From contig MFNK01000003.1 in assembly GCA_001782045.1 (NCBI GenBank), positions 269,049-333,048 on the forward strand: a stretch of 64,000 nucleotides of DNA, in the 5' to 3' direction. Positions 9,762 through 62,722 of this stretch are shown here, piece after piece. This DNA comes from Candidatus Levybacteria bacterium RIFCSPHIGHO2_01_FULL_36_15b. GTDB taxonomy: Bacteria > Patescibacteriota > Microgenomatia > Levybacterales > UBA12049. Position 1 is the first letter of the stretch. Every line of letters begins with the position of its first letter. The translations under genes were made by a program, and so were the position numbers. The notes under the pieces are model-generated. The model did no database searches. It was not told the DNA's origin and saw nothing but the letters and a program-made list of their open reading frames with translations.

Positions 9762-9775
9762 ATTAAAACAATATT

Positions 9776-18194: not shown

Positions 18195-18589
18195 ATATAA
18201 TTAAAGGTGGGAAATTGTTTGCAATCATTCATAAGAAAGAGGATTGGAAAGAAGAATTAAACTTTCTCACTCCAAATGACATGTTTTGTCAAGTTGGAAC
18301 ATGGTGGTATCAAAAGAATAAACATCTTAAGGCACATAAGCATATTTATAATCCTCGTAAAGCTTCAATGACTCAGGAATGTGTGATCGTTATTGTTGGC
18401 AAAATTAAAGCTACAATTTTCGATAACAATGATAAAATTATTCATACGGATATACTTACAGCAGGAGACTTACTTGTTTGCTTCGAGGGAGGCCACAGCT
18501 ACGACATTTTGGAAGATGATACAAAAGTTATTGAATGCAAGAATGGACCATTCGTTTCTGTGGAAAAAGATAAGGTAACAATTGAATGA
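18191..18589 (+). CDS. Small cupin-fold protein, paralog of 9381-9761 (WxcM/FdtA-like)
   Basis: 132 aa with KAHKHIY (H-x-H) and ...EGGHSYDILEDDTKVIECKNGPF. Translationally coupled (ATGA overlap) to fcl. Confidence 0.5.
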   Translation: MNIIKGGKLFAIIHKKEDWKEELNFLTPNDMFCQVGTWWYQKNKHLKAHKHIYNPRKASMTQECVIVIVGKIKATIFDNNDKIIHTDILTAGDLLVCFEGGHSYDILEDDTKVIECKNGPFVSVEKDKVTIE

Positions 18590-19308: not shown

Positions 19309-19310
19309 AT

Positions 19311-34508: not shown

Positions 34509-34510
34509 TT

Positions 34511-43162: not shown

Positions 43163-45412
43163 TTAAAAAAGAGTGTTTTTGAAAATTATCTTATGATTTC
43201 CCTTTGGAACAATTATTCCCCTAAAATTATAATCGGTCAAGTAAATTCGAGTTGGCACACTATCTATTTCAGCTTTCCACGTAGGATAAAAACTGTCAGT
43301 TAAGACTAAATACCCTTCATTCTCGTTTCTAGTTGATATAACTATTCTATTTTCACTGTATTCATCGATAACAACTTTGCCAACGCTCCAGTTTTTGGAA
43401 AGACTTTGTGAAGCTTCTTCAATAACCGCCCTTTGCTTAAAAGGATAATCATCAAACATTAAGTTAATTGCCTCATTTTTATCACGAGCAACTGTGGTTT
43501 TTCCTACAAAAAATGCTCTATCTATTACACGCGAATTATTGTAAATTTTTGTTTGTCCCTCCTGATAAACTTTTTCTAAATACGGCTCATTTATATCCTC
43601 CAAGCTTAAGATATATTTGACTCCGAGTAGATCAATTAATGGTGACTTGAAGTTTTGAGGCGTAATAATCCTATTGAACCCAAAAGGAGGTTCTATATTT
43701 GGCTCATTCCTTCCAAGTGCTGCCATAAGCTCAGCATATCTTCGTAGATACAAAGGGTCATAACCATCCAGAGTTTGAATTTTGTAATAAGTGGCAAAGT
43801 TAGGCGGAAAAATTTCTGCACTTGTAGACATAAAACGATAATTATTTAAATTCTCTTGTAAAAAGTTAGTTGTTTTTGTACTTGGAAATAAATATTTACT
43901 TTCCGCAAAGGTTGTATATTTCCAACCGAATCTGAAAAGGTCAAATAAAGTAATAACGACAATTATAATAAATAAAGTCTGAATAGCTTTCTTATTTTCT
44001 GATATTTTCTTAATAAATAACGTCACCATTAAAACTGACGATATAAATAGAAACAAAACCGTAGGTAACATTAAATTTCTTTTGGAAACGGCTAAATTTT
44101 CAGCTGTTATAAAGTCCTTTCCAAAAACTGGAGTAAAAGCCCAAAGAGAAGAAAATAGTATGAAAATAAATGATATTATAAAAATTATTTTTTTCTTTTC
44201 TTTGGTTTTTATAAAATAATCAACTCCAATAGCTGCAAGAACGCTTAAGCAAAAATCGATTACAAACATAAGTCTTGTTGGTTGCGAAGTAGAGATAAAA
44301 GGTATAGAAAATTTATAGGGTATTTTGGCAATAATACTCGGGTAAGCAAAAATAAATGCTACCAGTAAAATAAACCAAAAGAAAGCTGTGGTTTTATCTT
44401 TTTTAAATATTGAGAATAAAGCCATTATTAAGGGGAGTATTCCTACGTATCCGACAAACTCACCATAATTAAATTCCCCAAAATAATTAAGCGTTGCGGG
44501 GTTGCCAAAAAAATCAGGTGATAGGAATTGTACGAGATTTTGCCAAGGTACAAACCAACCAGCTATATTCCAATTAACTTGATCAATTGCTCTGGCAGAA
44601 TTTTCTATAAACTGTAACGTCGGAAGCCACTGTGGCAATGCAATAATTGTGATGGTCAAAAGGTAACCAATAAATAACAAAATAATTCTCGTACTTCTAC
44701 CGTTTTCAATCCATCTAAAGATAAAGTATGCAAGAGATACAGCAAACACATATGAAAATATTTGAAGGTGCCCAGCAAAAAAAGAGAAAAGGCTTGCAGT
44801 TGCCAATACTAACCACCAAATTGAGAACCTATTAAGATTTTTTAGAATTTTATCGATAGACAATAGCATCAAAGGAAGCCAAAGCGCAGTATGTAAAATA
44901 TTTCCCCATTCAAGCCAGGCAATAGCAAACCCAGAGAATGCGAAAGTAACTGAACCAAAATACGAAGCTATTTTGCTCATTCCTAAATTTCTTAGGAAAT
45001 AAAATAGGAAAAAACAAGCAAGCAGAGGCTGCAAAAATATAAGTAAGGACCAGGATGAAGAGAAAGGAAATATTAAGAATAGAATATTTAAAGGGTAGAA
45101 TGCTCCGGATTGGAAGTTTGCCAAAAGCGGTGTTCCGGAAAAGCTATACGGGTTCCAAAGAGGAAGCTGAAGTTTTTTCTCTAAATCTAGCACCAAATTT
45201 TTCCATGAAATTTGTTGCCTAACTGGATCTGTTATCAAAAAATTTTTAAAAGGAATTCCTCTGGGATAATCTTTCGCATAAAAATCCAAATAGGGATGAT
45301 ACAAACCGACTATAGTATCAGTAGGTATAGGCAATAAACCTTTAAACAGAAATTGCCAAAAGAAAATTGTGACAGTTGCTAAAATTAATAAACCTGGCAA
45401 AAATCTATTCAT
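43163..45412 (-). CDS. YfhO-family-like GT-C membrane glycosyltransferase (749 aa)
   Basis: N-terminal ...LPLWNPYSFSGTPLLANFQSGAFYPLNILFL... matches the conserved YfhO N-terminal motif. ~13 TM plus an extracytoplasmic C-terminal domain. Paralog of 46697-49051 and 60335-62722. Confidence 0.7.
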   Translation of the reverse strand: MNRFLPGLLILATVTIFFWQFLFKGLLPIPTDTIVGLYHPYLDFYAKDYPRGIPFKNFLITDPVRQQISWKNLVLDLEKKLQLPLWNPYSFSGTPLLANFQSGAFYPLNILFLIFPFSSSWSLLIFLQPLLACFFLFYFLRNLGMSKIASYFGSVTFAFSGFAIAWLEWGNILHTALWLPLMLLSIDKILKNLNRFSIWWLVLATASLFSFFAGHLQIFSYVFAVSLAYFIFRWIENGRSTRIILLFIGYLLTITIIALPQWLPTLQFIENSARAIDQVNWNIAGWFVPWQNLVQFLSPDFFGNPATLNYFGEFNYGEFVGYVGILPLIMALFSIFKKDKTTAFFWFILLVAFIFAYPSIIAKIPYKFSIPFISTSQPTRLMFVIDFCLSVLAAIGVDYFIKTKEKKKIIFIISFIFILFSSLWAFTPVFGKDFITAENLAVSKRNLMLPTVLFLFISSVLMVTLFIKKISENKKAIQTLFIIIVVITLFDLFRFGWKYTTFAESKYLFPSTKTTNFLQENLNNYRFMSTSAEIFPPNFATYYKIQTLDGYDPLYLRRYAELMAALGRNEPNIEPPFGFNRIITPQNFKSPLIDLLGVKYILSLEDINEPYLEKVYQEGQTKIYNNSRVIDRAFFVGKTTVARDKNEAINLMFDDYPFKQRAVIEEASQSLSKNWSVGKVVIDEYSENRIVISTRNENEGYLVLTDSFYPTWKAEIDSVPTRIYLTDYNFRGIIVPKGNHKIIFKNTLF

Positions 45413-46476
45413 TCTAAAATAATTTCTTTTAATTCTCTACAAAATCTTTCGCCTGCAAAATATTCCGCTCTTTTCTTTGCTGCAATAGATAATATATTTA
45501 ACTTTCTTTCATTTTTAGCTAATTCAATAGTTTTTTTCTTTAACTCTTCAATTGAGTTCCAAAGATAACCGTTTTCTCCATCTGTTATTATTTCTTTTTG
45601 TCCACCAGCATTAATTACAACGGGTACACATCCTGCTCCCATTGCCTCAACAGTTGATATGCCAAAATGCTCGGCAAATTCGGGATGTAAATTTAAATCT
45701 TCTCCAAAACCTGTTGCGTGCCAATATATTTTAGCTTTTGAGTAAATATCCCAAAGCTCGTCATTGCTTTTATTCACCAAAAATTCAATCGGATAACCAT
45801 TTGCAATTTCTTTGATCTTATTAAAATTTTCCTCGTCCGCACTATTAAGACCAACACATAAAACAAATTTCCAGTCTTTAAAACCTCCGTCAATCATTTC
45901 TTTAAAAGACTGTACCATCATGCCTTGTCTTTTATAATCTTCGTTGTTTACCCTTGCGTCTCTAAACCTCCCCACATGGAGAATATAATTTTCCTTCTTT
46001 TCCAGTCTTGCCTTAATTTCAATAGACGGATAAAGCACTTTACTTTGAATTCCAAGCTCTTTGTCCGCGAAGCTTTTTGTAAACGTTGAATTGCAAAAAA
46101 CTGCATTTATTCGTTTGAGCTTTAAACTACTTAATAAATTTGTCCTTACATTAGGAAGCGGTTGTTGAATATGTATAAATGTTTTGTTTGATAGGGTTAC
46201 GGGGATACTTCCATCGGAAAGGAAAATTATAATATCAAATTTTTTAGTTTCAATAATCTTTTGAATAAAACTGAATTTCGAGGAAAAAATATTTTTGTAG
46301 AAATTGACTTTCGATAGATCTATTGAAAATCTCCTCGTCAAGTTCTTAAACACTTCTTGGTCGTCCCAAAATACATAAACTTCATTATCTTTAGAAAGAC
46401 AAGATGCCAATGTCATCATGTATTTTTCTCCTCCACCAATATCGTCCAAATAAGGATCGAAAATTCCTATTCTCAT
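45409..46476 (-). CDS. Glycosyltransferase family 4
   Basis: ...AEHFGISTVEAMGAGCVPVVINAGGQKEIITDGENGYLW. Confidence 0.8.
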   Translation of the reverse strand: MRIGIFDPYLDDIGGGEKYMMTLASCLSKDNEVYVFWDDQEVFKNLTRRFSIDLSKVNFYKNIFSSKFSFIQKIIETKKFDIIIFLSDGSIPVTLSNKTFIHIQQPLPNVRTNLLSSLKLKRINAVFCNSTFTKSFADKELGIQSKVLYPSIEIKARLEKKENYILHVGRFRDARVNNEDYKRQGMMVQSFKEMIDGGFKDWKFVLCVGLNSADEENFNKIKEIANGYPIEFLVNKSNDELWDIYSKAKIYWHATGFGEDLNLHPEFAEHFGISTVEAMGAGCVPVVINAGGQKEIITDGENGYLWNSIEELKKKTIELAKNERKLNILSIAAKKRAEYFAGERFCRELKEIILE

Positions 46477-46537
46477 AGACTAATTCTATCAACTTTCAAT
46501 TTTTATTGCATAAAACTAAGACCTTCTCTATAATTAA

Positions 46538-46771
46538 GTGGTGAATAATTTTCTAATTCCGCAAATTCCCTCATTGCTTCTTTTTGCAGCTTTCCTTTGG
46601 ACTTTGCTTTGGAAAGGCATAGCACTATGGAGAGCCGCCAACTTAAAACAAAAGAATTGGTTTATAGCAATTCTTGTTTTAAACACGTTAGGAATTCTAG
46701 AGCTTGTTTACTTGTTTTATTTTGCTAAAAAAAGGCTTACCATACAAGAACTTAAATTTTGGGAAAAATAA
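46538..46771 (+). CDS. Possible small 2-TM membrane protein (77 aa, GTG start), PLDc_N-like pattern
   Basis: Two hydrophobic helices (LLLFAAFLWTLLW / WFIAILVLNTLGILELVYLFYF). Its 3' end overlaps the convergent gene 46697-49051 by 75 nt, which lowers confidence. Confidence 0.3.
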   Translation: MVNNFLIPQIPSLLLFAAFLWTLLWKGIALWRAANLKQKNWFIAILVLNTLGILELVYLFYFAKKRLTIQELKFWEK

Positions 46772-49051
46772 CATTAAAATAAAACCTAGGCCTGCAAGAA
46801 AAAGTCCTAAAACAAAAGATTTAGGAAAATAATTAAACTCTATTAAATGTTCTCCTTTTGGAATAGATACTGCTCGGAACGTAAAATCACTTCGTAATAT
46901 TTCTATTTCCTTCCCATCTACAAATGCCTCCCAACCAGGGTAGAAAGGGTCTGATATGAAAAGCAAGGAATTTCCATCAGTGTTAGTTTTTATCTTTATC
47001 TTATTGGACGTATAGGTAAGTAAATTAAGTTCTCCTTTTTTAAAATTTGGTTCACTTTGGGGATCTTTTTCTAAAACGACTGTTTCTCTCAAGTTTAAAT
47101 CCTTTGTAAACATCTCGTTTAGGATTTCTTGGGAGTTTGTTTTGACAGAATATTTATCAAGAAGAAAGGCCTTAGGATAAGCTTTAATGTTCTCATAGAT
47201 TTGATAAGCTACATCATCATAAGTTAATTTAAAACTATCTGGATAATTCCAAAAAGGATACTCCCAAACAGCATTACCATCTGATTTCTTGTGAATTAAA
47301 TAATTAACTCCCAATAAGTTTAATCCCTCATCTGAATTCAGTCCGTTTTTGGGAAATGCCACGACTGAACGAGCTGCAGGCGTTAAGTCACCATTATTTA
47401 GAGACGATATGAATTCTCCGTACCTTCTATTGTATACAGCGTCATATCCTCCTATTGTCGGTACTTTATAGACTACCGAGGCTTCTGCGCCAAAATTTGC
47501 TAACGCACGATCTTTATTCTGAATTTTAGCCAACTCACTTGAAACTTGTACATTTGGATAAAAATGGCTCTTGAGAGCAAATGGCTGCCATTTAGTCGCA
47601 AATCTAAGCATATCTAATGCTGTAAGAAGAATAAGTATAAATAGAATAATATTTATTCGCCTTGTGAGTTTACTAAAAATTATAAATAAACCGATTGTGC
47701 CTAAAAACGCTACAAAAATAAGCGTAGGTAGGATTAGATTTTGCCTAGCAATAACGGATTTTTCCAAACCTAGTACTTTTAAAAACACTATTAGCCACAG
47801 AGTTATAAAAATTATTGAGATAAGTGGTAAAAAGAGTTTCAATTTTTTTAACACTTTCTCTCTTAAATCCTTTTCCAGTTTTTCATAACCAAAAGCCGCA
47901 AGAACTGCGGCCGAAAAACTAAATAAAACTATTACTCTTGAAGCAGCGCTGGTTGATAATACAGGAATTTTAAGCAATACAACTAAATTTAAAAGTGGTG
48001 TTTGAAAAGAAAGAAATATTGCAATTAATGAGGAGACTAGGAAAAAAAATATTTTTTTGTTTTTTACGTAAAATAGACTATATATAGCAAGGAGTATTGG
48101 AACAAGTCCTAAAAAGGCATTCCATTCGGCATAATGCCCATACCAGTCGTTTCTTGTAACCGGATTGCCAAAGAAGTCTGGAGCAAAAAAAGTTGCAACA
48201 TAGCTCCACGGTATTACTTCAGCTTTTTGAAAGATAGAACTTCTTAAGCTTTGAGTATATGCTTCGACAGATGGCAAAACCTGAGGCAATGTAAGTAAGG
48301 CTCCAAAAGTTAAATAAGCAAAACAGAAAAAGGTTAATTGCTTATCTCTTGTTTCATAAAGCTTAAATAATAAATAAATAACTATAAAAAAAAGAAAATA
48401 TAAACTGATCTGAAAATGTCCGCTGAAAAAAGACAAAGGAAAAGTGAGCGATAGCATAAACAAATACTTAAATTCTCTTTCACTATAATATTTCTCTATA
48501 AAAAAAAGGGCGAGCGGTAAAAAAAGTATTGCATATCCAAGCGTTGCATAACCCATCCATGAGGTAATGAAGCCGCAAAACATAAAAGACACTGCTCCTA
48601 TTAAAGATGATTGATTTCCTAATTTAAGATTTTTTAAAAAAACAAACATAAAAGTTCCTGCAAGAAGCGGCTGGAGTAAAACTAAAATACTCCATGCATC
48701 TACAAAAGGGAGTAAAAGGAATAATAAATTAAACGGTGAAAGTACTGCTGATTGATAATTGGCAAGATGTACCGTCCCGGAAAAACTATAAGGATTCCAG
48801 AGCGGAATTTCACCACTTTTTAATGTATCTATAGTAAACATTTTCCACGGGACAATCTGACCTATAACATCGGGCATAGCATTGTTTTTTACAGGTCCTG
48901 CAAAACCGGGATAAGCATTCCATGGAGAAAAGAAATTAACAAGATAATCTGAAGCAAAAGGAATTTTATTTTGAACAAAATAGGGAGCAGAAAAGATTAG
49001 CCATATAAAAAAAATAAATAGCAGTGGCCAAAATTTATTTAATAATTTCAT
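46697..49051 (-). CDS. YfhO-family-like GT-C membrane glycosyltransferase (784 aa)
   Basis: ...IPLWNPYSFSGTVHLANYQSAVLSPFNLLFL..., with a C-terminal TM LGLFLAGLGFILMLFF. Confidence 0.7.
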   Translation of the reverse strand: MKLLNKFWPLLFIFFIWLIFSAPYFVQNKIPFASDYLVNFFSPWNAYPGFAGPVKNNAMPDVIGQIVPWKMFTIDTLKSGEIPLWNPYSFSGTVHLANYQSAVLSPFNLLFLLLPFVDAWSILVLLQPLLAGTFMFVFLKNLKLGNQSSLIGAVSFMFCGFITSWMGYATLGYAILFLPLALFFIEKYYSEREFKYLFMLSLTFPLSFFSGHFQISLYFLFFIVIYLLFKLYETRDKQLTFFCFAYLTFGALLTLPQVLPSVEAYTQSLRSSIFQKAEVIPWSYVATFFAPDFFGNPVTRNDWYGHYAEWNAFLGLVPILLAIYSLFYVKNKKIFFFLVSSLIAIFLSFQTPLLNLVVLLKIPVLSTSAASRVIVLFSFSAAVLAAFGYEKLEKDLREKVLKKLKLFLPLISIIFITLWLIVFLKVLGLEKSVIARQNLILPTLIFVAFLGTIGLFIIFSKLTRRINIILFILILLTALDMLRFATKWQPFALKSHFYPNVQVSSELAKIQNKDRALANFGAEASVVYKVPTIGGYDAVYNRRYGEFISSLNNGDLTPAARSVVAFPKNGLNSDEGLNLLGVNYLIHKKSDGNAVWEYPFWNYPDSFKLTYDDVAYQIYENIKAYPKAFLLDKYSVKTNSQEILNEMFTKDLNLRETVVLEKDPQSEPNFKKGELNLLTYTSNKIKIKTNTDGNSLLFISDPFYPGWEAFVDGKEIEILRSDFTFRAVSIPKGEHLIEFNYFPKSFVLGLFLAGLGFILMLFFPKFKFLYGKPFFSKIKQVNKL

Positions 49052-49787
49052 TTTTTTTATTTTGAAATTCCCAAAGTTTTGCGTATGTTATAAAAATACT
49101 AAAAGCTTGATAAATACTTTCTATTAGTCCTGTGCCCCTTGCCTTATATCCACCTTGCAATATGTAAGAATTGACAAAAGCAGACAACATAACTCTTGGG
49201 AATCTCCACCAACTCATTTTAGGATGATTAGCCCTTAAACGTAACTCTGCTTCAATACTAGACCAAGCAGCAGTTTTTTCAACCATTGATTCCAAGTTTT
49301 TATGAGTTTTATGTATTAAGAAACCATCAAAAATTGCAGTTTTACCCTCAACTATTGGTGTTTCGTGGATTTTACCCTCCCATCTTTTTAAATTGCCTTT
49401 TCTAAAAAGTCTTAACATCTTTTCTATATAGGGCCATTCATAATTTCCTAAATAAAAGTTTTTCCTTCTTAGATAATAAGCGCTAATGTTGTCATTTTTA
49501 ACGGCTTTGAGAATTTCACCCTTTAAAACTTCATCGCATCTTTCATCAGCATCAATATACAAAACCCAATCAAAACTCGCATGTTTAAGCCCAAAATTGC
49601 GACTCTCTGAAAAGTTAACTGTGGAGTCAATAAATACTTTTGCTCCTAAGCTTTCTGCTATTTTCTCTGTATTATCTGTTGAGCCGTTATCTACTACGAT
49701 AATTTCATCACAAAAAGATAAGTTATCAATGCAATCCCTTATATTATCTATTTCATTCTTTGCAAGAATAATCGCTGAAATTTTCAT
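49035..49787 (-). CDS. Glycosyltransferase family 2 (WaaE/KdtX-like)
   Basis: MKISAIILAKNEIDNIRDCIDNLSFCDEIIVVDNGSTDNTEKIAESLGAKV...IDADER. Confidence 0.8.
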   Translation of the reverse strand: MKISAIILAKNEIDNIRDCIDNLSFCDEIIVVDNGSTDNTEKIAESLGAKVFIDSTVNFSESRNFGLKHASFDWVLYIDADERCDEVLKGEILKAVKNDNISAYYLRRKNFYLGNYEWPYIEKMLRLFRKGNLKRWEGKIHETPIVEGKTAIFDGFLIHKTHKNLESMVEKTAAWSSIEAELRLRANHPKMSWWRFPRVMLSAFVNSYILQGGYKARGTGLIESIYQAFSIFITYAKLWEFQNKKNEIIK

Positions 49788-50692
49788 CTTTTATAACTAC
49801 CCTTACCTAGTATTCGCAAATAATAATCCCGCACGCCAATCTTTTGCCATTTCCTTCCTTCGTACAAAAGCCGTATGCTTTCTTTCAATAATGCCAACTT
49901 GGAGTAAAAAGGTCCATATTTGATACCGAATATCAGTCTATTGCGTGTTATGTAATAATCTTGCAGTTCCGAGCCGGAACCCCCGGTGGCCGCAGCATTT
50001 TTATGCCATAATTTTGCAGCAGGTTCAAATTGAATTTTAAATCCTTTAATTTTTGATCTGATACTAAAATCTGCATCTTCATAGTAGAGAAAATACCTAT
50101 CATCCAAAAGTCCCACATTTTCAAAAACTTCTTTTTTGATCATCATGCAGCAACCTGTAGCTATTTCAGTTTCGCTAGTTTTAGAGTATTTATTGCTATC
50201 TACTTCATCGACTCCAGTATGTTTTCCTAAAATATTTTTCCAGTCTATTTCTCCTCCCGCATACCAAATAATTTTTCCTTTATCTTTTTCGCTGTATCTT
50301 TCTTTGTGATATTCAAAACCTTTAGCAAAATATATTTTAGGAACCACTATTCCTACATCGCTTTTGAAAGCTTTCAGCATATTTGTAATTAAATCCTTAT
50401 CTACTTGTGTATCGTTGTTTAAAATAACGATATAATCAGCACCATTCTGCAGGGAATATTTGATTCCAATGTTGTGCCCTCCACTAAACCCTAAGTTTTG
50501 ATTACTCCTTATAATCTTTAGTTTAAATTCTTTAAGGCTTTCCCGAGAGACAAATGGTTCTACTGAGGCATTATCAATAACTACCACATTAAGCTCTATG
50601 TCTTTTCTATCTAACTTTCTAATACTCTCAAGACATTCAAGGGTAGATTCATTATCATTAAATGTAAGCAGAGAAATAAAAACTTTGCTCAT
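49784..50692 (-). CDS. Glycosyltransferase family 2 (WbbL/rhamnosyltransferase-like subgroup)
   Basis: ...VVIDNASVEP..., NQNLGFSGGHNIG, ILNNDT, YFLYYEDADFSIRSKIKGF. Confidence 0.8.
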   Translation of the reverse strand: MSKVFISLLTFNDNESTLECLESIRKLDRKDIELNVVVIDNASVEPFVSRESLKEFKLKIIRSNQNLGFSGGHNIGIKYSLQNGADYIVILNNDTQVDKDLITNMLKAFKSDVGIVVPKIYFAKGFEYHKERYSEKDKGKIIWYAGGEIDWKNILGKHTGVDEVDSNKYSKTSETEIATGCCMMIKKEVFENVGLLDDRYFLYYEDADFSIRSKIKGFKIQFEPAAKLWHKNAAATGGSGSELQDYYITRNRLIFGIKYGPFYSKLALLKESIRLLYEGRKWQKIGVRDYYLRILGKGSYKR

Positions 50693-51604: not shown

Positions 51605-51607
51605 ATT

Positions 51608-53765: not shown

Positions 53766-55429
53766 CTGGGTCTTTTTATTATACCAAGAGCAAGGAGCAC
53801 AATGCCAGATATGCTTAAAATATTACCAATTGTCTCAGTTTTTGTTTCTTTATAAGCAAACACTAGATTATTTTTTCCTGGTACAAGTTGTACGCTTGTG
53901 CCCTTAGTAGCTTCTTTTGTACTTACTTCTCTTCCGTTTAGATATGCTCTCCATGCCGGAAAATATGCCAAGGGGACAACAACGTTTGTCTTTTGAACAG
54001 TTCTTAGATTTAATTCTATTCTGTTAGTTTTTTTACTATAGCTTTCCAATCTAATGTTGTTATTTTCTACTGATTTCAAATTTGCTATTTGAGATATGTT
54101 TTTGGGTTTCATAAATTTCTTTGGCATGTATTCGCTAGTTATTTTAGAAATATCCCAATTCAAAGCATTTTTCGACACATAATCAGATGAATCTTTAGCA
54201 AGAATTGTTTGGGGAGAAAAGAATTTAAAATTTAGAAAAACTACTGCGATACAAGCTGAAAAAATAACTATCATATATATTCTAGGATTAATATATTGTT
54301 TTAATAATAAAAATAAACCACCGCTAAGGAAGGACACAGAAAAAGACGCTATCAATAAAAATCTCCAAGGATACTGAATATATTCCATTGCAGGTAAACT
54401 ATCCCAAATAAATTGAGACGCCGAAAGCATTAGAAATACACTTAAGAGTAAAAATGATAAAAACAATGTTACTATTTGAATTGTGTCTTTCTCCAAAACT
54501 TTAAAATTTCTTTTTAGAAGTAAAAAGAGAGTGGCAAGTATAGATAATACGGAAGCTAATATATGATATTTACCTATCATAAAGGAAATACCATCGATGC
54601 ATCCTTTTGCTGAACCGCCAAATCCCCATTGACTTGTCCAAAACTGCGATAAGCATACGAAATGATCTCTAAAATTTGCTCCTCCGCCAACTTGAGACAC
54701 AACATTTGTATAATTCATTTCTAAAATAGCCGGGAGCGAGTAAAATGAAGAAAGTAAAACTCCTAATCCTAAAGCTATAAATAAATTAGCTCTATTTTTG
54801 TTTTTTATAAAAAGAAAAATAGAAAACAGTAAGTAGAAAGGGGTAATTATAAAAGCAGTTAAATTGTGGGAAATAATAACAAGTGCAAAAAAAAGTGCCA
54901 CAAGAAATACATGTTTATATAAATTTTCCTTGTATATTTTATAAAGACCCAAAAAAACAAGAGGAACAAATCCATAGGCATAAAATTCCGCAACGTCTCC
55001 CCTGACGTAAATATTTACTGCATGATATGGGGCATATAAATAAAGCAACCCGGCGACAAGGCCCGCAGGCCTTCCAAAAAACTCTTTAGCCAATAAATAC
55101 ATAGAAATTCCTGCCAGTATAATGCCAATAATCATCATCGCTTTTGTGGCGTCAAGAGGATTTAAGCCCAATAAGTTAATTACTGCTCCAGTATAGTAAG
55201 CAAATGGTGCATAAAAATTAAATATTGGATAGCCGTACCCAAAACCCAAATCTGCGCTCCATCTTACGGGCACCATTCCATCTTTTAGGGCACTTGCCAT
55301 TTCAAAAACCCTAGAGGGTTGCGTATCGTCATGCATTGGGAAAAATCCGTTTAATAAAAGTGGTCTTATTGCAAAAAAAGATAAGATTATTATTAAAAAG
55401 AATGGAAATAGTTTTTTTAATGATTCCAT
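53762..55429 (-). CDS. Family C polytopic membrane protein (HDD...RW...GYGYPIFNFY), putative GT-C-like glycosyltransferase
   Basis: ...FFPMHDDTQPSRVFEMASALKDGMVPVRWSADLGFGYGYPIFNFYAPFAYY...YAPYHAVNIYVRGDVAEF.... Confidence 0.7.
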   Translation of the reverse strand: MESLKKLFPFFLIIILSFFAIRPLLLNGFFPMHDDTQPSRVFEMASALKDGMVPVRWSADLGFGYGYPIFNFYAPFAYYTGAVINLLGLNPLDATKAMMIIGIILAGISMYLLAKEFFGRPAGLVAGLLYLYAPYHAVNIYVRGDVAEFYAYGFVPLVFLGLYKIYKENLYKHVFLVALFFALVIISHNLTAFIITPFYLLFSIFLFIKNKNRANLFIALGLGVLLSSFYSLPAILEMNYTNVVSQVGGGANFRDHFVCLSQFWTSQWGFGGSAKGCIDGISFMIGKYHILASVLSILATLFLLLKRNFKVLEKDTIQIVTLFLSFLLLSVFLMLSASQFIWDSLPAMEYIQYPWRFLLIASFSVSFLSGGLFLLLKQYINPRIYMIVIFSACIAVVFLNFKFFSPQTILAKDSSDYVSKNALNWDISKITSEYMPKKFMKPKNISQIANLKSVENNNIRLESYSKKTNRIELNLRTVQKTNVVVPLAYFPAWRAYLNGREVSTKEATKGTSVQLVPGKNNLVFAYKETKTETIGNILSISGIVLLALGIIKRPR

Positions 55430-57054
55430 ATTTTTTTTCTATATACCCAAAATAAAATCGTAGTTACTATAAATGAAATTATTGAAATAAAATTACTTAA
55501 GCTTCTTAAAGGAGTTTCTTCAAAGCGTAAGCTTACATCGTTACTGCCCTTGTTTAATCTTAACCTTATTACTCCTCTTGGGTTATCATAGTCTATTTTA
55601 GTGCTTATTCCATTAACGTAAGCATTCCAACCTGGATAATATATCAAATTCACCTGAACCGTTCTTTCTTTTTCTAGAAATGTGCTAAAGCTGATTTTAT
55701 TTGCAAGCGTTTGTGATAATATTATTTTTTCATTTCCGTCTAAAATTTCTACTTTCTCGCTCGCCTGTTGTCTAGGCATTGTTTTTACCCATAAGGGCAT
55801 TAGCTCATTTGAAGATGTAGTAGTCGCTTGATTTGTAGTATAAAATGAGTCTTCCCTTACTATAATAGATTGCGGCTTTGCATGTGGAATAACCAATACA
55901 AATGCAAAGATTGCAAGAAATATAGACATTGCAATAAATCTTTTATCAATTGTTGTCAAATATCCAGCGAGCAGGCTTATCAAGAAAGTAATTACTGCAA
56001 GAAGTGTCCAAGGATAATTTATTTCAGAAATCAGTGGCACGTTAGACCATATAACTGAAGAGAAGGAAAATAAAAGTATAGAAATAGCTAAAGTCGATAA
56101 AATTAAATAAATTGCAATTCGCGAGTCTCTGCTATTGAATCTGAAAAGAACTAAGAAAAAAACCGTGATAAAAACTAAAATATAGGGTAGTCCTATTTGA
56201 TAACCGAAGCCGTTAATATCGGTTGGCGTACCATATCCCCACTTTGGAGTAATTAAATCCGAAAGGCTTACAAAATACTGGCTTCTGTCTGCAATTGGAA
56301 CCTTAGAAAGTAATATTAAATTTTTTTCAGCAAAAGCCGGTATCCAGAAAAATGCGGCAAGGCAAAGGGAAAGAACAATAGAAAATATAAGATTTAATAA
56401 AAATGAAATATTTTTTTTGAAAATTGCAAAAAACGAAACTAACAATAATACTAACCCAAAAAGAACTGCCATAATGTTATGCATTAGCATTAATAAACAG
56501 TAAAGAATTCCAAATATAAGAATGTCTGGAATAGAATTTGGTTTTTCATAAATTTTCTTTATCCAAAGCAGAATGAGCGGAAAAAGAACAAATGACAAAG
56601 ACTCACCAAGTGAGCCTCTAACATATAAATCCACTATGTGATATGGAATATATATATAAAGAGTTGCGCATATAAACCCCGCTAAGTTATTTTTCCAAAG
56701 ATTTTTTGCCAAAAAAAACATTGAAAGAAACGATAAAACTACACTTAATGCAAAGAGAATTTTTATACTTGTAATAAATCCAAGCTTAAGAAAAACAAAA
56801 ACCAGTCCTAAATAATAAGGAAGTGGATATGTAAAGTTAAAAAGTGGATAACCGTATTGAAAATTTAGATAAGTACTATAACGCGCCGGAATCTCGAACG
56901 ACTTAAATTCCCTATACATTTCTGAAAGCCTTACAACTGCCCACTCTCCATCGTGTGTGGGAAAATAACCAGATTTAAAATAAGGCAGTATAAGAGGCAG
57001 ACTTATTACAAAGGATATTAGTAAAATTACAACAATATTTTTGAATTGCTTCAT
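55417..57054 (-). CDS. Family C polytopic membrane protein, tandem paralog
   Basis: ...YFPTHDGEWAVVRLSEMYREFKSFEIPARYSTYLNFQYGYPLFNFTYPLPYY...YIPYHIVDLYVRGSLGES.... Confidence 0.7.
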   Translation of the reverse strand: MKQFKNIVVILLISFVISLPLILPYFKSGYFPTHDGEWAVVRLSEMYREFKSFEIPARYSTYLNFQYGYPLFNFTYPLPYYLGLVFVFLKLGFITSIKILFALSVVLSFLSMFFLAKNLWKNNLAGFICATLYIYIPYHIVDLYVRGSLGESLSFVLFPLILLWIKKIYEKPNSIPDILIFGILYCLLMLMHNIMAVLFGLVLLLVSFFAIFKKNISFLLNLIFSIVLSLCLAAFFWIPAFAEKNLILLSKVPIADRSQYFVSLSDLITPKWGYGTPTDINGFGYQIGLPYILVFITVFFLVLFRFNSRDSRIAIYLILSTLAISILLFSFSSVIWSNVPLISEINYPWTLLAVITFLISLLAGYLTTIDKRFIAMSIFLAIFAFVLVIPHAKPQSIIVREDSFYTTNQATTTSSNELMPLWVKTMPRQQASEKVEILDGNEKIILSQTLANKISFSTFLEKERTVQVNLIYYPGWNAYVNGISTKIDYDNPRGVIRLRLNKGSNDVSLRFEETPLRSLSNFISIISFIVTTILFWVYRKKIWNH

Positions 57055-58700
57055 GTACCAACTATTCTAAACGCAACGCTGCCGTCTAAGAAGTAAATAG
57101 TTTTAATAAGTCCGGGTGCGTTTTCTGGAATCTCATTGGGACTGCCTATTAAAAGAGTGTTTTTAAGCTGACTATCCTGACTATAGTTTATTTTTCTGAA
57201 TTCATATTTACCGATAACCCTTCTCATCCTCTCAACTTGTCCGCTACCTTGATAGTTCCAATTTTTTTGATACCAAGAAGGTTCAATTTTATTATGGAAT
57301 AGATAGTAAATATATGGCTGGTCATAAATGTAAGTAAAAAGAATTTTGCTGTATTTATTTTCAACTGACTTAGCTTCTAAAACTGCTTCTTTGTTTCCAT
57401 ATTGCCACCAATGACTTATCTGGCGAGGAGTATGGACATAATACTGATGGAGATAATAAGCAAAGTTAATAACGAAAAGTCCGGCAGTTATTACAAGAAG
57501 AATTTTGTATTTGTAATTATTTCTATTTAAGAAAAAATAGTACACGCCAAGTGCTGTAAATATAGAGAATGCCGGTGCCATGGCAATAGCTCGTACTGGA
57601 TGCGGCGTACCTGTACTAACTGCTGAAGACAAAGGTGCAATTAAAAATAGAACCAAAATCAATAATGATTTTTTAGTTCTATCCCTAAAAATAAAATATA
57701 TTCCAAATATAATAAAGGGCAATTCCCATAGGTATTGCATTCCCATGTTTACTGCATGGTGTTGTCCACCGCCATCTCCATTAAAAAATAAAAAATCAGG
57801 ATTCCAATGATCAAAATACCCCTTTGCAAGAGCTAAGAAATAGACAACTCTTCTGTTGTCTAGAATCGCGCCTATTTTGTCACTGCGAGAATAATCGTAT
57901 TCAAGCCTCTTTATCGAAGGATTTATTGTTTCACCTGTGGCAAAAATTGATACCATAGAAAGCCTAGAACCGGATCCACCGATTGATATAAAGCTTGAGT
58001 AAACCGGCAGAGAAATAATTAAGCCGAAAAGAAGTGAAACAAGATAGTATTTTTTGTTAACGAGTATATCTTTCCAAAAAAGAAGCGTAAAGGCGGCAAT
58101 GAAAAGAGGCGTAATCAAAACAAAACTATGGTAGGAATATATGCTTAAAACAAAAGAGATTGCCGCAAGAATTGCCAGCCATTTCGCTTTTAAACTTTTA
58201 AGAAGCAATAAAAATGCCAATAGAAAAAAGAATATCCCTGCATTACCTTCAAACGCAGCTCTAGAAAATTGCAAACTCCAAGGGGAAACTCCCCAAAAAA
58301 ATGCAGCTAATATTGCCAATATCTCTTTTTTGTTTTTTTCTAATTTAGAAAAAATTTCTTTTGTTAAGAAGTAAATTGTAATAACTGACAAAAATCCCAA
58401 GATCGCTGAGGGAAGTCTAACTCCCATTTCACTCAAGCCGAATAAGGCAATGCTGGGTACTGAAAGATAAATATAGGCAGGTGGTTTATAATCGCCAAAG
58501 GATCTAATTGATAATGGAAGTTTATTTCCATATTCATCGGCTCCAGTCTTAAGAATCGAATATGCATTATATCCGATGCTCGCCTCATCCCAATCTAAAG
58601 AAGGAGGATTTACTCCTAAATTATAAAATCTTAGAAAAAAAGCGAGTAAAAACACAAACGTTAAAATAATCAAATATATATTTTTTTTAAATAGATACAT
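57051..58700 (-). CDS. Glycosyltransferase family 39-like (PMT_2-type) membrane protein
   Basis: ...LRFYNLGVNPPSLDWDEASIGYNAYSILKTGADEYGNKLPLSIRSFGDYKPPAYIYL...RLPSAILG.... Confidence 0.8.
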   Translation of the reverse strand: MYLFKKNIYLIILTFVFLLAFFLRFYNLGVNPPSLDWDEASIGYNAYSILKTGADEYGNKLPLSIRSFGDYKPPAYIYLSVPSIALFGLSEMGVRLPSAILGFLSVITIYFLTKEIFSKLEKNKKEILAILAAFFWGVSPWSLQFSRAAFEGNAGIFFFLLAFLLLLKSLKAKWLAILAAISFVLSIYSYHSFVLITPLFIAAFTLLFWKDILVNKKYYLVSLLFGLIISLPVYSSFISIGGSGSRLSMVSIFATGETINPSIKRLEYDYSRSDKIGAILDNRRVVYFLALAKGYFDHWNPDFLFFNGDGGGQHHAVNMGMQYLWELPFIIFGIYFIFRDRTKKSLLILVLFLIAPLSSAVSTGTPHPVRAIAMAPAFSIFTALGVYYFFLNRNNYKYKILLVITAGLFVINFAYYLHQYYVHTPRQISHWWQYGNKEAVLEAKSVENKYSKILFTYIYDQPYIYYLFHNKIEPSWYQKNWNYQGSGQVERMRRVIGKYEFRKINYSQDSQLKNTLLIGSPNEIPENAPGLIKTIYFLDGSVAFRIVGT

Positions 58701-60396
58701 ATATTATCCTAAAGGCCCTTGTACCATCTTTCCTATATAGATTCGTGTGCTTTAAAAGGTTCAAGCCTTTATAATCCTTACAGTTTCCACTGTCGATAAT
58801 AATCGTATTTTTTGCTATGGGAATTGACGGGTCAAGATTATACGAGGGACATTCCGAATTCGCAAAATAAAACTTTCCAAACCCCTTACCAGGCTTATCT
58901 TTTGGAGAACCTTCTTTTTGATATTGTACTGGATCATACTGCATATAGAATAAAACCAGCGGATATATTCCACCGAAAGATTTACTAATAATAATCCCAT
59001 TTGTATTTAAGTAATTATCCTTAACAATTTTCATCATTTTGTCGAAACCTTCGTATCTGTACCAATTTCTATGGACCTGAGTTTGGATAAAATATTGATG
59101 TAAAAAATAGGAAAAATTATAAAGTAGGAAAATTGCAAAAATTGCAATAAATAATTTAGATAATTTTCCTGGATACTTCTCAATAATCTTAACAAAGCCA
59201 AGCGCTACAATAAGGCCAATTATAGGAAACATTACAATCGCTCTTTGTAGGTTTGGAACATCATCAACAGTAATTGCAGCAACAACTGGAGCAATTAAAA
59301 GCCACACAAGAGGCAGTTTGTGAAAGATATCTTTTGAGAGAAGTAAGTAAAAAATACCTACAATAATAAATGGAAGTTCAACTAAATATAGCAAGCCCAT
59401 GCCCGGCACCTTATACCAATTGGGCCAACCTCCCTGAATAAATAAAAACTGCCCTGAAAAATATTCTAGATAATTTGAAACAAACGCTATGGAATAATTC
59501 GTTATCTTATTATGCGTAAACCTTGTAATAAGTTGCGAGATGTTTTGATTTCCATCTTCGCGAATTTGCTCATCCAAAATAAGCTGTGTTCCTGGTGCAT
59601 TAAAAATATTTACCTGAGAAAATCTTCCTGTTCCTCCTTTAATTAGAAATACGAGCGAAAAAGAGATCAAAGAGACGACTAAAAATGAAAAAATTAAAGA
59701 CATCTTAACGTTTTTTGAAAACTTACCCCAAACGGGAAAAAGAAAAAGTATAAAACATAAGAATAGTAGAGGTACAAAAACTCTTGGCGTATGGTAAAAG
59801 AAAAAGCTAAGCGAAAGAGATATTGCTCCGGCAAAAAAATAAATCGGGCTTCTCTTTTGTATCCCCGCTATTACAAGAGCAAACCCAGAAATTATCCAAA
59901 ATAGCGAAACTATTGTCTCAGCGCTAGCGCGAGACAATACAATACTCCATGGAGCCATAGTCACCAAAATTGCAGCAAGTAAACTTACTCTTTTGTTCTT
60001 AAATAAAAGCTGGGAAAAAAAATAGATAGGCAAAATCATTAATATTCCAAATAATGCCCCTGGTAATCTTGTAGCAAATTCATTTAGTCCTAAAATTTTT
60101 ATTGGCAATATTGTCAAATAATGATATCCAGATGGCCTGTTGTCGCCGAACATGTCTATATACAGCGGCAGACTATTGTTATTTTCATCTTTCCCTGTAA
60201 GCAGGAGGGAATAAGCGTTGTATCCCAAAGAAGCCTCGTCGATGTGAAAACCGAGAGGAACAGAACCTAAGTCATATAATCTTAAAAACGACGCAAATAA
60301 TAAAATGATTCCAAGAATTAACCAAGTTTTTAAATTATTTTTTGATAATTGAATTCTTCCTAGCATAAGCAAATCTAACATTATTATATCCCACAA
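58687..60396 (-). CDS. Glycosyltransferase family 39-like (PMT_2-type) membrane protein, tandem paralog
   Basis: ...LRLYDLGSVPLGFHIDEASLGYNAYSLLLTGKDENNNSLPLYIDMFGDNRPSGYHYL...RLPGALFG.... The annotated start overlaps the upstream gene by 62 nt. The true start is probably an internal Met/Leu near ~60366. Confidence 0.75.
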   Translation of the reverse strand: MWDIIMLDLLMLGRIQLSKNNLKTWLILGIILLFASFLRLYDLGSVPLGFHIDEASLGYNAYSLLLTGKDENNNSLPLYIDMFGDNRPSGYHYLTILPIKILGLNEFATRLPGALFGILMILPIYFFSQLLFKNKRVSLLAAILVTMAPWSIVLSRASAETIVSLFWIISGFALVIAGIQKRSPIYFFAGAISLSLSFFFYHTPRVFVPLLFLCFILFLFPVWGKFSKNVKMSLIFSFLVVSLISFSLVFLIKGGTGRFSQVNIFNAPGTQLILDEQIREDGNQNISQLITRFTHNKITNYSIAFVSNYLEYFSGQFLFIQGGWPNWYKVPGMGLLYLVELPFIIVGIFYLLLSKDIFHKLPLVWLLIAPVVAAITVDDVPNLQRAIVMFPIIGLIVALGFVKIIEKYPGKLSKLFIAIFAIFLLYNFSYFLHQYFIQTQVHRNWYRYEGFDKMMKIVKDNYLNTNGIIISKSFGGIYPLVLFYMQYDPVQYQKEGSPKDKPGKGFGKFYFANSECPSYNLDPSIPIAKNTIIIDSGNCKDYKGLNLLKHTNLYRKDGTRAFRIIYVSI

Positions 60397-62722
60397 AAGA
60401 CACTAAAAATATAAGAGATAATGCACTGATGCCAAGCCCTAACTTAAAACTTTTGGGATTATAATAAAATTCTACTTTATGATTCCCCTTTGGGATTTCA
60501 ACGGCTCTAAAAGAATAATTGGCAATAAGAATTTCTTTTTTATTCCCATCTATTTTTACTTCCCATTCGTTGTAATAATTATCCGATAAGAATAACAGCG
60601 AGGGCTTATCTGCTAAGGCCTGAATGACTATTTTATTTGGAGAATAAGAAACTAAATTAGCTTTTTGAGCCACAGTAAAAGCCGCTTGAAAGCTTGGGCT
60701 TTTCTCTAAGATTAAAGTTTTTCGTAAATCCAAGCTTTTATCATATATTTTTTCCAGTGCTTTATTTTTTGATACAACTATATAATCAGATGTAATAAAA
60801 AATCTTGGCAGTGCGTCTTTATTTTCATAAATTTGCCATGGACTATCTTGCCAAATAAGCGAATATTGATCTTTTGGAAATACTTCTTCGTTAGGTTGCC
60901 AACTATTAGATAGTAGGTTGTCTTTAAAGGTAATATATTTAATTCCTAAAAGATCAAGAAGTTCTTTTCTATAAACATTTTCCCCTAACGATTTTCCGCC
61001 TTGAGAAATATTTACATCAGATCTTGGAATAGTCTTTAGAATTTTTCCGTCCTTTGCCATAGTTACTAACTCCATATACCTTTTTATTATTAAAGGGTCG
61101 TATCCCTCAGCTGAGTAAATTTTTTCATGAGTTTGGAAATTTGTTTCTATATATCCACTTCCATAACCCCAAGATCTATCTATCCCCGAAAGATTTTTTA
61201 TTTCCTTAACTACCTTAGTTTGTGGATAAAAAAATTGAGCTGGAGAAAAAGGAGTTATTTTATTAAAAAAATAAAAAAGGTCAAAAACAATAATTATCAA
61301 AAAAATTGTGGCAATGTTTTTATATTTTCGAAAAGGAATTAACGCTAATAAACTTAAAATAAAAATAGATGATGGTAATATTAAATTCTTTTTAGAGACT
61401 AACAAATCTGAAATCCATGGATATTTTAAATAATAAGGAGCAATAAAAACAAAAATCCATAAAGATAAATATATAAACCCAACGATAACAAGAGGCTTAT
61501 AAACTATTTTTCTTTCTTTTAACCAAATATTTAATCCCATAGCAGATAGGACAGAGGCTGAAAAAGAAAAAAGAAAAATAATTCTTGTGGGAACTCCTGT
61601 ACTTATAAATGGAATATGTAAAGAATTAATGAATAATCCAAAAGGCGTGTTTAATGTAAAAATATAAACAAAAAAAGCCCATGCAAAGAAAAACCAATAT
61701 GGTTTAAATTTTTTCTGAAAAAAAGAAATGAAGATAAAAATTAACGGTAAAACTCCTATATAAGTTACCCTTTCAATATATGTTCCGTTTAACCAATAGT
61801 TTCTAGTTGCTGGATTTCCAAAAAAATCAGGTACAAAGGTAGTTACCGTGTGATACAGGGGAATTAATAAGTTTTTAATAGCATCAATTGAAAAACTACT
61901 TCTTGCAGATTGAGAAAATAAATCAAAAGTAGGAAGCAATTGAAAAGCAGAAAGAAATAAGGGTAAGATGAAAACTGGCAGGTAGTTTAAAACTAGCGTT
62001 AATTTCTTTTTCTCTGAAATTATTTTGTAAATTAAATAAGTAAATGAAAATATAAATACATAAATAGAAACCTGAATATATCCAGCAAGAATTGATAAAG
62101 TAAGAGATAAAATCAATAAAAAGGAAGTTGATATTGTAAGTTTCTTAATATTCTTATCTATTAAGAAAAGTATTATAGGTAACCAAAGGACAGCATGACC
62201 AATAATTCCATATTGGAGCCATACAACCATATACGAGGAAAAAGCAAAAGTGATTGCGCCAAATATAGAGGCAACTTTATAAAGATTATTTTGCCGTAAA
62301 AAAAGAAAAGTAAATATTCCGGCAAGAATTGGCTGAGCAATAATATACATAGCCCAACCTGGAATAATTCCAAATATTAACAGCAATAAATTAAAAGGAT
62401 AAAAAAATCCACTTTGAAAATTGGGCATAAAAGGAGTACCTGAAAAATTATAAGGATTCCATAACGGAATCTGCCAGGTTGCCAGGCTATTTATTGCAAA
62501 TTCTTTCCAAGGAAAAGTCATTCTAATAATGTCAAAACCCTGACCCTTATTGGGTACGCCGCCAGGAGCAATTCCAAAATAAGAGTTTGAACTATATGGA
62601 GAATATTCTCCAACTAAAAGATCTCCAGGAAAAGGGATATATCCTTTAAAAAGGGGGTGGAAAAAAAGAATTACTATAAATCCTATTAGGATATAAGGCC
62701 AAAGCTTTTTAAGCTTCTTCAT
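60335..62722 (-). CDS. YfhO-family-like GT-C membrane glycosyltransferase (795 aa)
   Basis: ...IPLWNPYNFSGTPFMPNFQSGFFYPFNLLLL..., with a C-terminal TM LGLGISALSLIFLVSFVGY. Confidence 0.7.
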   Translation of the reverse strand: MKKLKKLWPYILIGFIVILFFHPLFKGYIPFPGDLLVGEYSPYSSNSYFGIAPGGVPNKGQGFDIIRMTFPWKEFAINSLATWQIPLWNPYNFSGTPFMPNFQSGFFYPFNLLLLIFGIIPGWAMYIIAQPILAGIFTFLFLRQNNLYKVASIFGAITFAFSSYMVVWLQYGIIGHAVLWLPIILFLIDKNIKKLTISTSFLLILSLTLSILAGYIQVSIYVFIFSFTYLIYKIISEKKKLTLVLNYLPVFILPLFLSAFQLLPTFDLFSQSARSSFSIDAIKNLLIPLYHTVTTFVPDFFGNPATRNYWLNGTYIERVTYIGVLPLIFIFISFFQKKFKPYWFFFAWAFFVYIFTLNTPFGLFINSLHIPFISTGVPTRIIFLFSFSASVLSAMGLNIWLKERKIVYKPLVIVGFIYLSLWIFVFIAPYYLKYPWISDLLVSKKNLILPSSIFILSLLALIPFRKYKNIATIFLIIIVFDLFYFFNKITPFSPAQFFYPQTKVVKEIKNLSGIDRSWGYGSGYIETNFQTHEKIYSAEGYDPLIIKRYMELVTMAKDGKILKTIPRSDVNISQGGKSLGENVYRKELLDLLGIKYITFKDNLLSNSWQPNEEVFPKDQYSLIWQDSPWQIYENKDALPRFFITSDYIVVSKNKALEKIYDKSLDLRKTLILEKSPSFQAAFTVAQKANLVSYSPNKIVIQALADKPSLLFLSDNYYNEWEVKIDGNKKEILIANYSFRAVEIPKGNHKVEFYYNPKSFKLGLGISALSLIFLVSFVGYNNVRFAYARKNSIIKK

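Follow-up and report, generated by a model that had tools for sequence, protein, structure and literature searches.

The stretch of DNA analysed here, referred to below as the window, comprises 64,000 nt of the genome of Candidatus Levybacteria bacterium RIFCSPHIGHO2_01_FULL_36_15b (contig MFNK01000003.1, positions 269,049 to 333,048), an uncultured groundwater member of the Candidate Phyla Radiation (CPR), and harbors three genes for YfhO-family glycosyltransferases of the C fold class (GT-C), all of them intact open reading frames (ORFs) on the minus strand:

43163 to 45412, minus strand: YfhO1, YfhO-family GT-C of 749 aa without a C-terminal transmembrane (TM) anchor (PF09586, E 7e-22)
46697 to 49051, minus strand: YfhO2, YfhO-family GT-C of 784 aa with the last TM helix present (PF09586, E 1.9e-34)
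60335 to 62722, minus strand: YfhO3, YfhO-family GT-C of 795 aa with PMT_2 genes on both sides (PF09586, E 2.2e-30)

Taken alone, three YfhO genes are routine and it is their context that matters more: they belong to a dense GT-C locus whose core order is conserved over candidate divisions, which makes it a prime candidate for surface-coat synthesis in Microgenomatia. The assignment to the YfhO family, proposed for these coordinates in a preliminary description, was examined against PF09586, absence of a match having been named beforehand as the result that would count against it. All three proteins match significantly (E 7e-22 to 1.9e-34), with 78.1, 119.7 and 106.2 bits for YfhO1, YfhO2 and YfhO3 respectively against a Pfam gathering score of 28.5 bits, so the assignment stands. 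Pairwise BLASTP aligns them along about 760 residues at 30–35% identity (E 1e-103 to 2e-128) and, judged by sequence, they are true paralogs. All listed homologs of YfhO2 and YfhO3 carry a precomputed PF09586 annotation and many orthologs are already labelled 'YfhO family protein' at NCBI, so membership itself is not new. Identical YfhO2 and YfhO3 proteins recur on 13–15 metagenomic contigs (up to ~280 kb), the NCBI entry 'hypothetical protein A3B38_02255' from Candidatus Levybacteria RIFCSPLOWO2_01_FULL_36 has exactly the sequence of YfhO3, and the closest homologs of the YfhO proteins are named Candidatus Levybacteria/Levyibacteriota or Patescibacteria.

The three proteins have in common an N-terminal block, (Q/E)(L/I)PLWNPY(S/N)FSGT...N(F/Y)QS...P(L/F)N(I/L)L, which had been noticed earlier and which they share because of homology, not chance. 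The block had also been described as characteristic of the YfhO family, and this does not hold for the Firmicute comparison set, two annotated YfhO genes from plasmids of Priestia megaterium and Bacillus thuringiensis that sit within modules of a family 2 glycosyltransferase (GT2), GtrA and YfhO (loci L091 and L092). The window proteins are 22–23% identical to these two, and in place of the block the Priestia and B. thuringiensis proteins have FWSWKYGLGGD and FYSW-EGGMGL. Since the block is kept in close representatives (at least 90% conservation among 147) and replaced in Bacillales, the IPLWNPY/NFQS block is, on the sequences compared, a clade signature and not a family hallmark; the trap corrected here is to take a motif kept among CPR paralogs for a hallmark of the family. 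Residues conserved both in the two Bacillales proteins and in at least 90% of an alignment of 152 sequences are (YfhO2 numbering) D61, G92, P179, N301, G315, R372, R515, L697, W707 and G733, with D61, G92, P179, R515, W707 and G733 at 99% and R372 at 91%. D61 belongs to the loop that follows TM1, stands in the context [T/P]Dxxx[Q/R] and is invariant in YfhO1, YfhO2, YfhO3 and both Bacillales proteins. GT-C enzymes carry a conserved acidic residue (a modified DxD) in an extracellular loop (PMC8035078); D61 answers to this description, the N-terminal GT2 fusions described below placing its loop outside, and is a natural candidate for the Asp that acts in catalysis or metal binding. A second motif, GYD, is invariant, follows directly on the last core TM helix and is clade-specific, being missing from the Bacillales YfhO proteins.

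The AlphaFold2 (AF2) model of YfhO2 (predicted local distance difference test, pLDDT, 88.9; predicted template modelling score, pTM, 0.90) comprises about 13 membrane helices (residues 2–488) with a long first loop, an alpha/beta plus beta-sandwich domain (residues 490–742) outside the membrane, and a final TM helix. This is the GT-C arrangement of a multi-TM N-terminal domain with a large extracytoplasmic C-terminal domain, and the top Foldseek matches in the PDB are all GT-C enzymes (AftD, STT3, ArnT, PglB, AglB and DPY19, E 1e-6 to 1e-3); searching the PDB sequences with the YfhO profile gave no relative of solved structure. The loop at 297–305, modelled with low confidence, falls inside an invariant PDFFGNPxTRN motif. 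In two proteins from other Patescibacteria genomes (P0113, 1036 aa, and P0162, 1019 aa) an ortholog of the window's GT2_250 is fused N-terminally to a YfhO2-like protein, and since that GT2 is cytoplasmic, the N-terminus of YfhO2 would lie inside the cell and loop 1 outside. The best explanation of the model and the fusions is that each YfhO has a cytoplasmic N-terminus, about 13 TM helices, an outside loop 1 bearing the Asp, a mobile outside PDFFGNPxTRN loop and a large outside C-terminal domain. The terminal TM helix differs between the copies, being present in none of 79 YfhO1 orthologs, 36 of 44 YfhO2 orthologs and 19 of 20 YfhO3-like proteins.

A profile of the three paralogs retrieves 69,391 cluster representatives at E ≤ 1e-3, and YfhO2 has over 1600 homologs, of which the first 120 share 51–78% identity with it. 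In a genome collection with each species represented once, a scan turned up at least 527 encoding stretches; the synteny counts given below use the best 80 loci, which belong to Levy-, Gottesman- and Roizmanbacteria. YfhO1 orthologs (41–60% identity, 80 species-representative genomes) and YfhO2 orthologs are cleanly separable, with median ratios of best to second bit score of 1.9 and 1.75, and a full-length YfhO2 ORF is found in 44–46 of the 80 loci, many of which are truncated by contig ends. YfhO3 forms an orthogroup of its own (45–81% identity), and the position of YfhO3-like genes varies between loci. Together with the differing terminal helix, these separate orthogroups indicate at the sequence level that the duplications are old and the copies functionally distinct, which fits the earlier suggestion of three diverged copies with distinct specificities. 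Horizontal acquisition was considered and dropped, since GC content is flat (30–36%) across the window and the locus recurs throughout the lineage. As a separate observation, many records of metagenome-assembled genomes with this Patescibacteria-type locus (L010, L011, L013 and others) are titled 'uncultured Gammaproteobacteria bacterium' (TPA_asm binchicken/SRP), titles that look like placeholder or wrong labels.

The genes that surround YfhO1 and YfhO2 are the following:

41534 to 42244, minus strand: PPS236, candidate polyprenyl-phosphate-sugar synthase, DPM1-like, soluble, 236 aa (PDB and NCBIfam matches)
42241 to 43161, minus strand: GT2_306, soluble GT2 with no TM helix (PF00535, E 6.6e-27)
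45409 to 46476, minus strand: GT4_355, family 4 glycosyltransferase (GT4) of the B fold class (GT-B) (PF00534, E 3.8e-19)
49035 to 49787, minus strand: GT2_250, soluble GT2, partner of YfhO2 (PF00535)
49784 to 51604, minus strand: GT2_302 and GT2_303, two cytoplasmic GT2s of the conserved core (PF00535)
51608 to 53062, minus strand: Wzx484, flippase of the MOP/Wzx type, core position conserved (PF13440, E 1e-47)
53049 to 53765, minus strand: PPS238, second candidate polyprenyl-phosphate-sugar synthase, ArnC-like, soluble, 238 aa (PDB and NCBIfam matches)

The preliminary description placed each YfhO copy beside a GT4 or GT2 gene. This is right for the two copies to which such genes are tightly linked, YfhO1 (GT4_355 upstream, GT2_306 downstream) and YfhO2 (GT2_250 upstream, with an overlap of 17 nt), and wrong for YfhO3, which has PMT_2 GT-C genes on both sides. 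In the related loci GT4_355 lies directly upstream of YfhO1 in 75 of 75 cases, GT2_306 directly downstream in 67 of 77 and PPS236 two genes downstream in 45 of 74, and GT2_250 is adjacent to YfhO2 in 38 of 42. The recurring core order, (PTPS) – PPS238 – Wzx – GT2_303 – GT2_302 – GT2_250 – (YfhO2) – GT4_355 – YfhO1 – GT2_306 – PPS236 – (methyltransferase) – PMT_2 – PMT_2, is found in about 80 Microgenomatia species from at least three candidate divisions, and in the related genomes the ~22 kb that surround YfhO1 encode a median of 6 GT-C ORFs (80 loci). According to Pfam and NCBIfam scans of ORFs of at least ~100 aa, the 64-kb window consists almost wholly of glycan genes, and from ~21.2 kb (21204) to the window end (64000) they form one almost gapless minus-strand array of 43 kb. 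The three YfhO genes are a minority of the 17 outward-facing GT-C genes of the window (three YfhO, two YfhO-like, eight PMT_2, three PTPS_related and one unassigned), a point that the earlier description had missed.

On the donor side, PPS236 has its best PDB match in the Pyrococcus dolichol-phosphate-mannose synthase (DPMS) 5mlz (E 1e-21, over the whole catalytic domain) and matches AglJ, PgfS, ArnC, PpgS and a Dol-P-hexose transferase in NCBIfam. PPS238 is closest to ArnC (E 6e-23, residues 5–217), then to GtrB and DPMS, with NCBIfam matches to ArnC (4e-24) and PgfS (2e-20). These two proteins lie 1 to 7 genes from the YfhO genes. Within the window they also match best the GT2s that accompany YfhO in the Bacillales modules, PPS236 ranking first, and they are likely polyprenyl-phosphate-sugar donor synthases. 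The other transferases of the core have a different character: the best PDB relatives of GT2_250 are GmaR (1e-20) and SunS/ThuS, not DPMS, GmaR being a flagellin O-GlcNAc transferase and SunS/ThuS being S-glycosyltransferases, and GT2_250, GT2_303 and the N-domain of a GT2-PMT_2 fusion in the window form one subfamily at 28–37% identity. GT4 enzymes have the GT-B fold and use nucleotide sugars, and are not the partner of the A fold class (GT-A) in a three-component system. A further GT2 at 6292–7284, with two C-terminal TM helices, was considered as a GtrB/CsbB and rejected, its PDB and NCBIfam matches being to generic GT2s and not to GtrB or DPMS.

The observed membership, fold, topology logic, conserved residues, synteny and gene fusions are consistent with a scheme whose donor, acceptor and order of steps are inferred. 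At the inner membrane face, PPS236 and PPS238 would charge polyprenyl phosphate with the sugar of a nucleotide sugar, the resulting lipid-linked sugar would then be flipped across the membrane, and each YfhO paralog would add the flipped sugar, outside the membrane, to a surface glycan. This glycan would most likely be the lipid- or wall-linked product of the locus's cytoplasmic GT2 and GT4 enzymes, exported by the Wzx flippase, and each paralog would form a different linkage on it, alongside the 14 other GT-C enzymes of the window. The mechanism has its precedent in CsbB/GtcA/YfhO and related systems (PMC8035078, PMC5836110), and in its general outline (charging of polyprenyl phosphate by PPS236 and PPS238, flipping, and transfer outside by YfhO) it is probably correct. 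For the acceptor, the chance that it is a polysaccharide of the surface or a lipid-linked glycan, produced by the locus itself, is about even or slightly less. This acceptor is favored because the embedding among a Wzx flippase and five glycosyltransferases is conserved and because relatives of the YfhO-like Big740 protein of the window carry CBM_4_9 or LysM modules, which would indicate carbohydrate or cell-wall acceptors for that branch.

Several observations weigh against this reading. Searches by phmmer with the two Bacillales GtrA sequences (E ≤ 1), which are of limited sensitivity, found no GtrA in the window or in the 80 related loci, in keeping with the lack of PF04138 (GtrA/GtcA) in Pfam scans of the window genes; the sole flippase-like genes in the window encode two Wzx/MOP proteins, and by analogy with gtcA in B. 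subtilis GtrA could be encoded outside the locus. PPS236 and PPS238 have none of the C-terminal TM helices of CsbB and GtrB. No priming phosphoglycosyl transferase, Wzy polymerase or LytR-CpsA-Psr (LCP) ligase was recognised in the window scans, so the glycan made by the locus is itself inferred. Furthermore, the known substrates of YfhO-family enzymes include Ser/Thr-rich proteins besides teichoic acids (PMC12041528), and the likeness of GT2_250, the protein fused or adjacent to YfhO2, to the protein and peptide glycosyltransferases GmaR and SunS instead of DPMS would fit protein glycosylation equally well.

Protein O-glycosylation is a serious alternative, although it is considered unlikely: by analogy, the YfhO paralogs would move sugar from polyprenyl-P-sugar onto Ser/Thr-rich secreted or membrane proteins (S-layer, pilins, adhesins), as the YfhO-family members PgtC2, PgfM1 and PgfM2 do on Ser/Thr-rich disordered regions (PMC12041528). 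The sole NCBIfam matches of YfhO2 and YfhO3 are to PgfM1 and PgfM2 (NCBIfam NF047589 and NF047590; E 4.5e-12 and 2.4e-8), YfhO1 having none; these are sub-threshold, cover only the C-terminal ~100 aa, and their best scores (44.8 and 33.1 bits) fall far under the equivalog cut-offs of 1400 and 1500. PPS236 and PPS238 match PgfS (2e-20), the YfhO2 partner GT2_250 has the relatives already named and PMT/PMT_2 genes share the array, whereas no Ser/Thr-rich substrate gene was noticed in the window, where no systematic search for one was made, and the conserved linkage to a Wzx flippase and five cytoplasmic glycosyltransferases is typical of a glycan-assembly locus.

It is distinctly improbable that at least one YfhO instead uses a Wzx-flipped polyprenyl-PP-oligosaccharide en bloc, like an oligosaccharyltransferase (OST), ligating or polymerising the repeat unit. 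Such an enzyme, in this improbable case, would replace the Wzy or ligase seemingly missing from the conserved core, which has the Wzx and five cytoplasmic transferases and no recognisable Wzy, WaaL or LCP. Foldseek ranks STT3, PglB and AglB as high as ArnT and AftD, but fold likeness cannot separate donor classes. The position of the invariant GYD just after the last core TM helix is, we assume, roughly that of the OST motif WWDYG, but GYD is not found in the Bacillales YfhO proteins. To our knowledge no YfhO-family member uses a PP-linked donor, the two DPM1/ArnC-like synthases in the array point to monosaccharide-P-lipid donors, and a 9-TM protein encoded at 26899–28041 could be the Wzy. The least probable alternative, to be given very little weight, is the Firmicute framing of the preliminary description, in which three CsbB/GtcA/YfhO-like three-component systems would decorate lipoteichoic (LTA) or wall teichoic acid (WTA) as YfhO of B. 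subtilis, S. aureus and Listeria does (PMC8035078, PMC5836110): YfhO membership and the presence of DPM1-like GT2s agree with it, but the host is a CPR Levybacterium for which no teichoic acid was found in the literature searched, Pfam scans of the listed window genes above ~100 aa gave no TagF/LtaS-type or other teichoic-acid gene, GtrA/GtcA was not found, the GT2 candidates lack CsbB-type TM helices, and the low identity to Bacillales YfhO goes with a signature block that is not common to both.

Comparison with known systems places the locus between several of them. With CsbB-GtcA-YfhO of B. subtilis, S. aureus and L. monocytogenes it shares PF09586, the GT-C architecture, the Asp in the first outside loop and, in the neighbourhood of the YfhO genes, a GT2 resembling polyprenyl-P-sugar synthases. 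Unlike these systems, it belongs to a CPR host, its candidate synthases have no TM helices, and neither GtrA nor teichoic-acid genes were seen. The window proteins also differ from Bacillales YfhO by ~30 extra aa in loop 1 and by the lack of a ~150-aa insertion in the C-terminal domain, and whereas L091 and L092 are two- or three-gene modules, the window YfhO genes stand in a Wzx-type glycan locus among many other GT-C genes. The streptococcal PgtC2/Pgf system (PgfS-PgfM1-PgfE-PgfM2) likewise combines YfhO-domain GT-Cs with a GT-A lipid-sugar synthase and has several YfhO paralogs per locus, but the window proteins score far below its cut-offs, no adhesin or Ser/Thr-rich genes were noticed in the window, and the window has many more transferases.

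Mycobacteria assemble an envelope glycan outside the membrane with a large set of GT-Cs that use polyprenyl-P-monosaccharides. This set (AftA-D, EmbA-C, PimE, MptA/B), supplied by Ppm1, PpgS and other polyprenyl-P-sugar synthases, resembles the window in that AftD is the best structural match of both YfhO2 and Big740, an MptA_B-family gene opens the array and PPS236 and PPS238 match PpgS, but the relation is by fold alone, at 10–12% identity. The mycobacterial GT-C genes are scattered over a 4.4-Mb genome; the 17 of the window lie in 64 kb of a genome of ~0.8–1.1 Mb, judged from two Levybacteria 'chromosome' records (762,565 and 1,142,061 bp). Gtr-type (GtrA-GtrB-Gtr*) periplasmic O-antigen glucosylation and the modification of lipid A by ArnC-ArnT share the logic in which a GT2 makes undecaprenyl-phosphate-sugar (Und-P-sugar), the lipid is flipped and a GT-C transfers the sugar outside; ArnC and GtrB are the nearest relatives of PPS238, and the fold matches include ArnT. 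Unlike in those systems, the GT-C families differ and no flippase of the GtrA or ArnE/F type was recognised in the window. Lipopolysaccharide is excluded as an acceptor, since CPR bacteria, as we assume, have no outer membrane.

Four features of the locus are less ordinary: how densely GT-C genes are packed and how well they are conserved in so small a CPR genome, the GT2-YfhO fusion, a Pfam-negative YfhO-like family and the missing GtrA. The literature searched yielded no paper on any of these four, nor anything relevant on YfhO or GT-C enzymes from Patescibacteria, Microgenomates or Levybacteria. Hardly any work has characterised the cell envelope of CPR/Patescibacteria, whose members live attached to other cells. 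By analogy, the GT-C set may be lineage-wide and act as an assembly line outside the membrane that builds the main envelope glycopolymer or glycoprotein coat of these ultra-small bacteria almost wholly from polyprenyl-phosphate-monosaccharides, without GtrA, an idea that we regard as speculative. Equally tentative is its comparison with the ALG steps in the lumen of the endoplasmic reticulum or with mycobacterial synthesis of arabinogalactan and lipoarabinomannan. Experimental handles are offered by PPS236 and PPS238, the GT2-YfhO fusion, the invariant D61 and the Pfam-negative YfhO-like family, which current annotation misses.

The remaining features of the island that bear on GT-C genes or interrupt the array are listed below:

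2813 to 4993, minus strand: Big726, 726 aa, paralog of Big740 (36% identity over 733 aa, E 7e-144), no Pfam or meaningful NCBIfam match
14826 to 17048, minus strand: Big740, divergent YfhO-like GT-C of 740 aa (AF2 and hhalign; no Pfam or meaningful NCBIfam match)
28997 to 40950, minus strand: seven GT-C genes (Pfam), namely three PMT_2 of group A/B, one PTPS_related, one of 549 aa, one GT2-PMT_2 fusion of 770 aa and one PMT_2 of 517 aa
30547 to 32859, minus strand: the GT2-PMT_2 fusion, 770 aa, a GT-A/GT-C fusion
46538 to 46771, plus strand: DUF5652, 77 aa, two TM helices, antisense in the sole gap of the array (PF18893, E 2.2e-21)
53762 to 60396, minus strand: four GT-C genes between YfhO3 and PPS238, two PMT_2 and two PTPS_related (PF13231, PF10131)
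62725 to 64000, minus strand: PMT_2 GT-C cut by the window end, 505 aa in full (PF13231)

Among the eight PMT_2 genes of the array, one is GT2-fused and one is cut by the window end, and for the 549-aa protein the link to PMT_2 (group B) comes from BLASTP only (1e-22). Big726 and Big740 have YfhO topology. The AF2 model of Big740 (pLDDT 92.2) has AftD as its best Foldseek match (E 3e-9), followed by AglB, STT3 and AftA, and hhalign aligns Big740 with the YfhO profile over 530 columns with a probability of 99.4% (E 3e-21). On model and profile comparison Big740, and with it its paralog Big726, is a divergent YfhO homolog, which brings the window to five YfhO-like genes. The Big740 family has about 135 detected members, all seemingly of CPR type, and it is the longer ones that bear CBM_4_9 or LysM.

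The DUF5652 gene overlaps the 3' end of YfhO2 by 75 nt, and in 33 of 75 related loci it likewise lies antisense and immediately upstream of GT4_355; that this mini-protein might be an accessory or flippase component is a pure guess. A promoter and terminator scan of the array's single 220-bp gap gave nothing better than shuffled sequence. At 26899–28041 (minus strand) lies a gene for a protein of 380 aa with ~9 TM helices and no Pfam or NCBIfam match, a homolog of which sits between GT2_250 and YfhO2 or GT4_355 in several related loci; it is a possible Wzy-like polymerase or ligase. Neither this gene nor those at 1846–2715, 32859–34508 and 20425–21207 gave an NCBIfam match by which a Wzy, ligase or priming transferase could be named.

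Two gene sets for sugar-nucleotide modification lie outside the array. On the plus strand, 17265–20417 encodes an epimerase/dehydratase, a WbuC-like cupin (18191–18589), a formyltransferase (18586–19308) and a LegC/PseC-like aminotransferase (19311–20417), a set that suggests an N-formylated amino-deoxy sugar. The region 7316–12141 contains a GDP-mannose 4,6-dehydratase (8276–9355), a second WbuC-like cupin, a short-chain dehydrogenase/reductase (SDR), a large methyltransferase and an RmlD-like reductase. The locus continues beyond both borders of the window: as seen in locus L006, which also has the PMT_2 gene in full, the array begins ~3.5 kb past the window end with GT2 (276 aa) – MptA_B-family GT-C – PMT_2 – YfhO3, and beyond the window start there are further GT2, GT4 and acetyltransferase genes and large unknown genes of 692, 623 and 1054 aa (L089).

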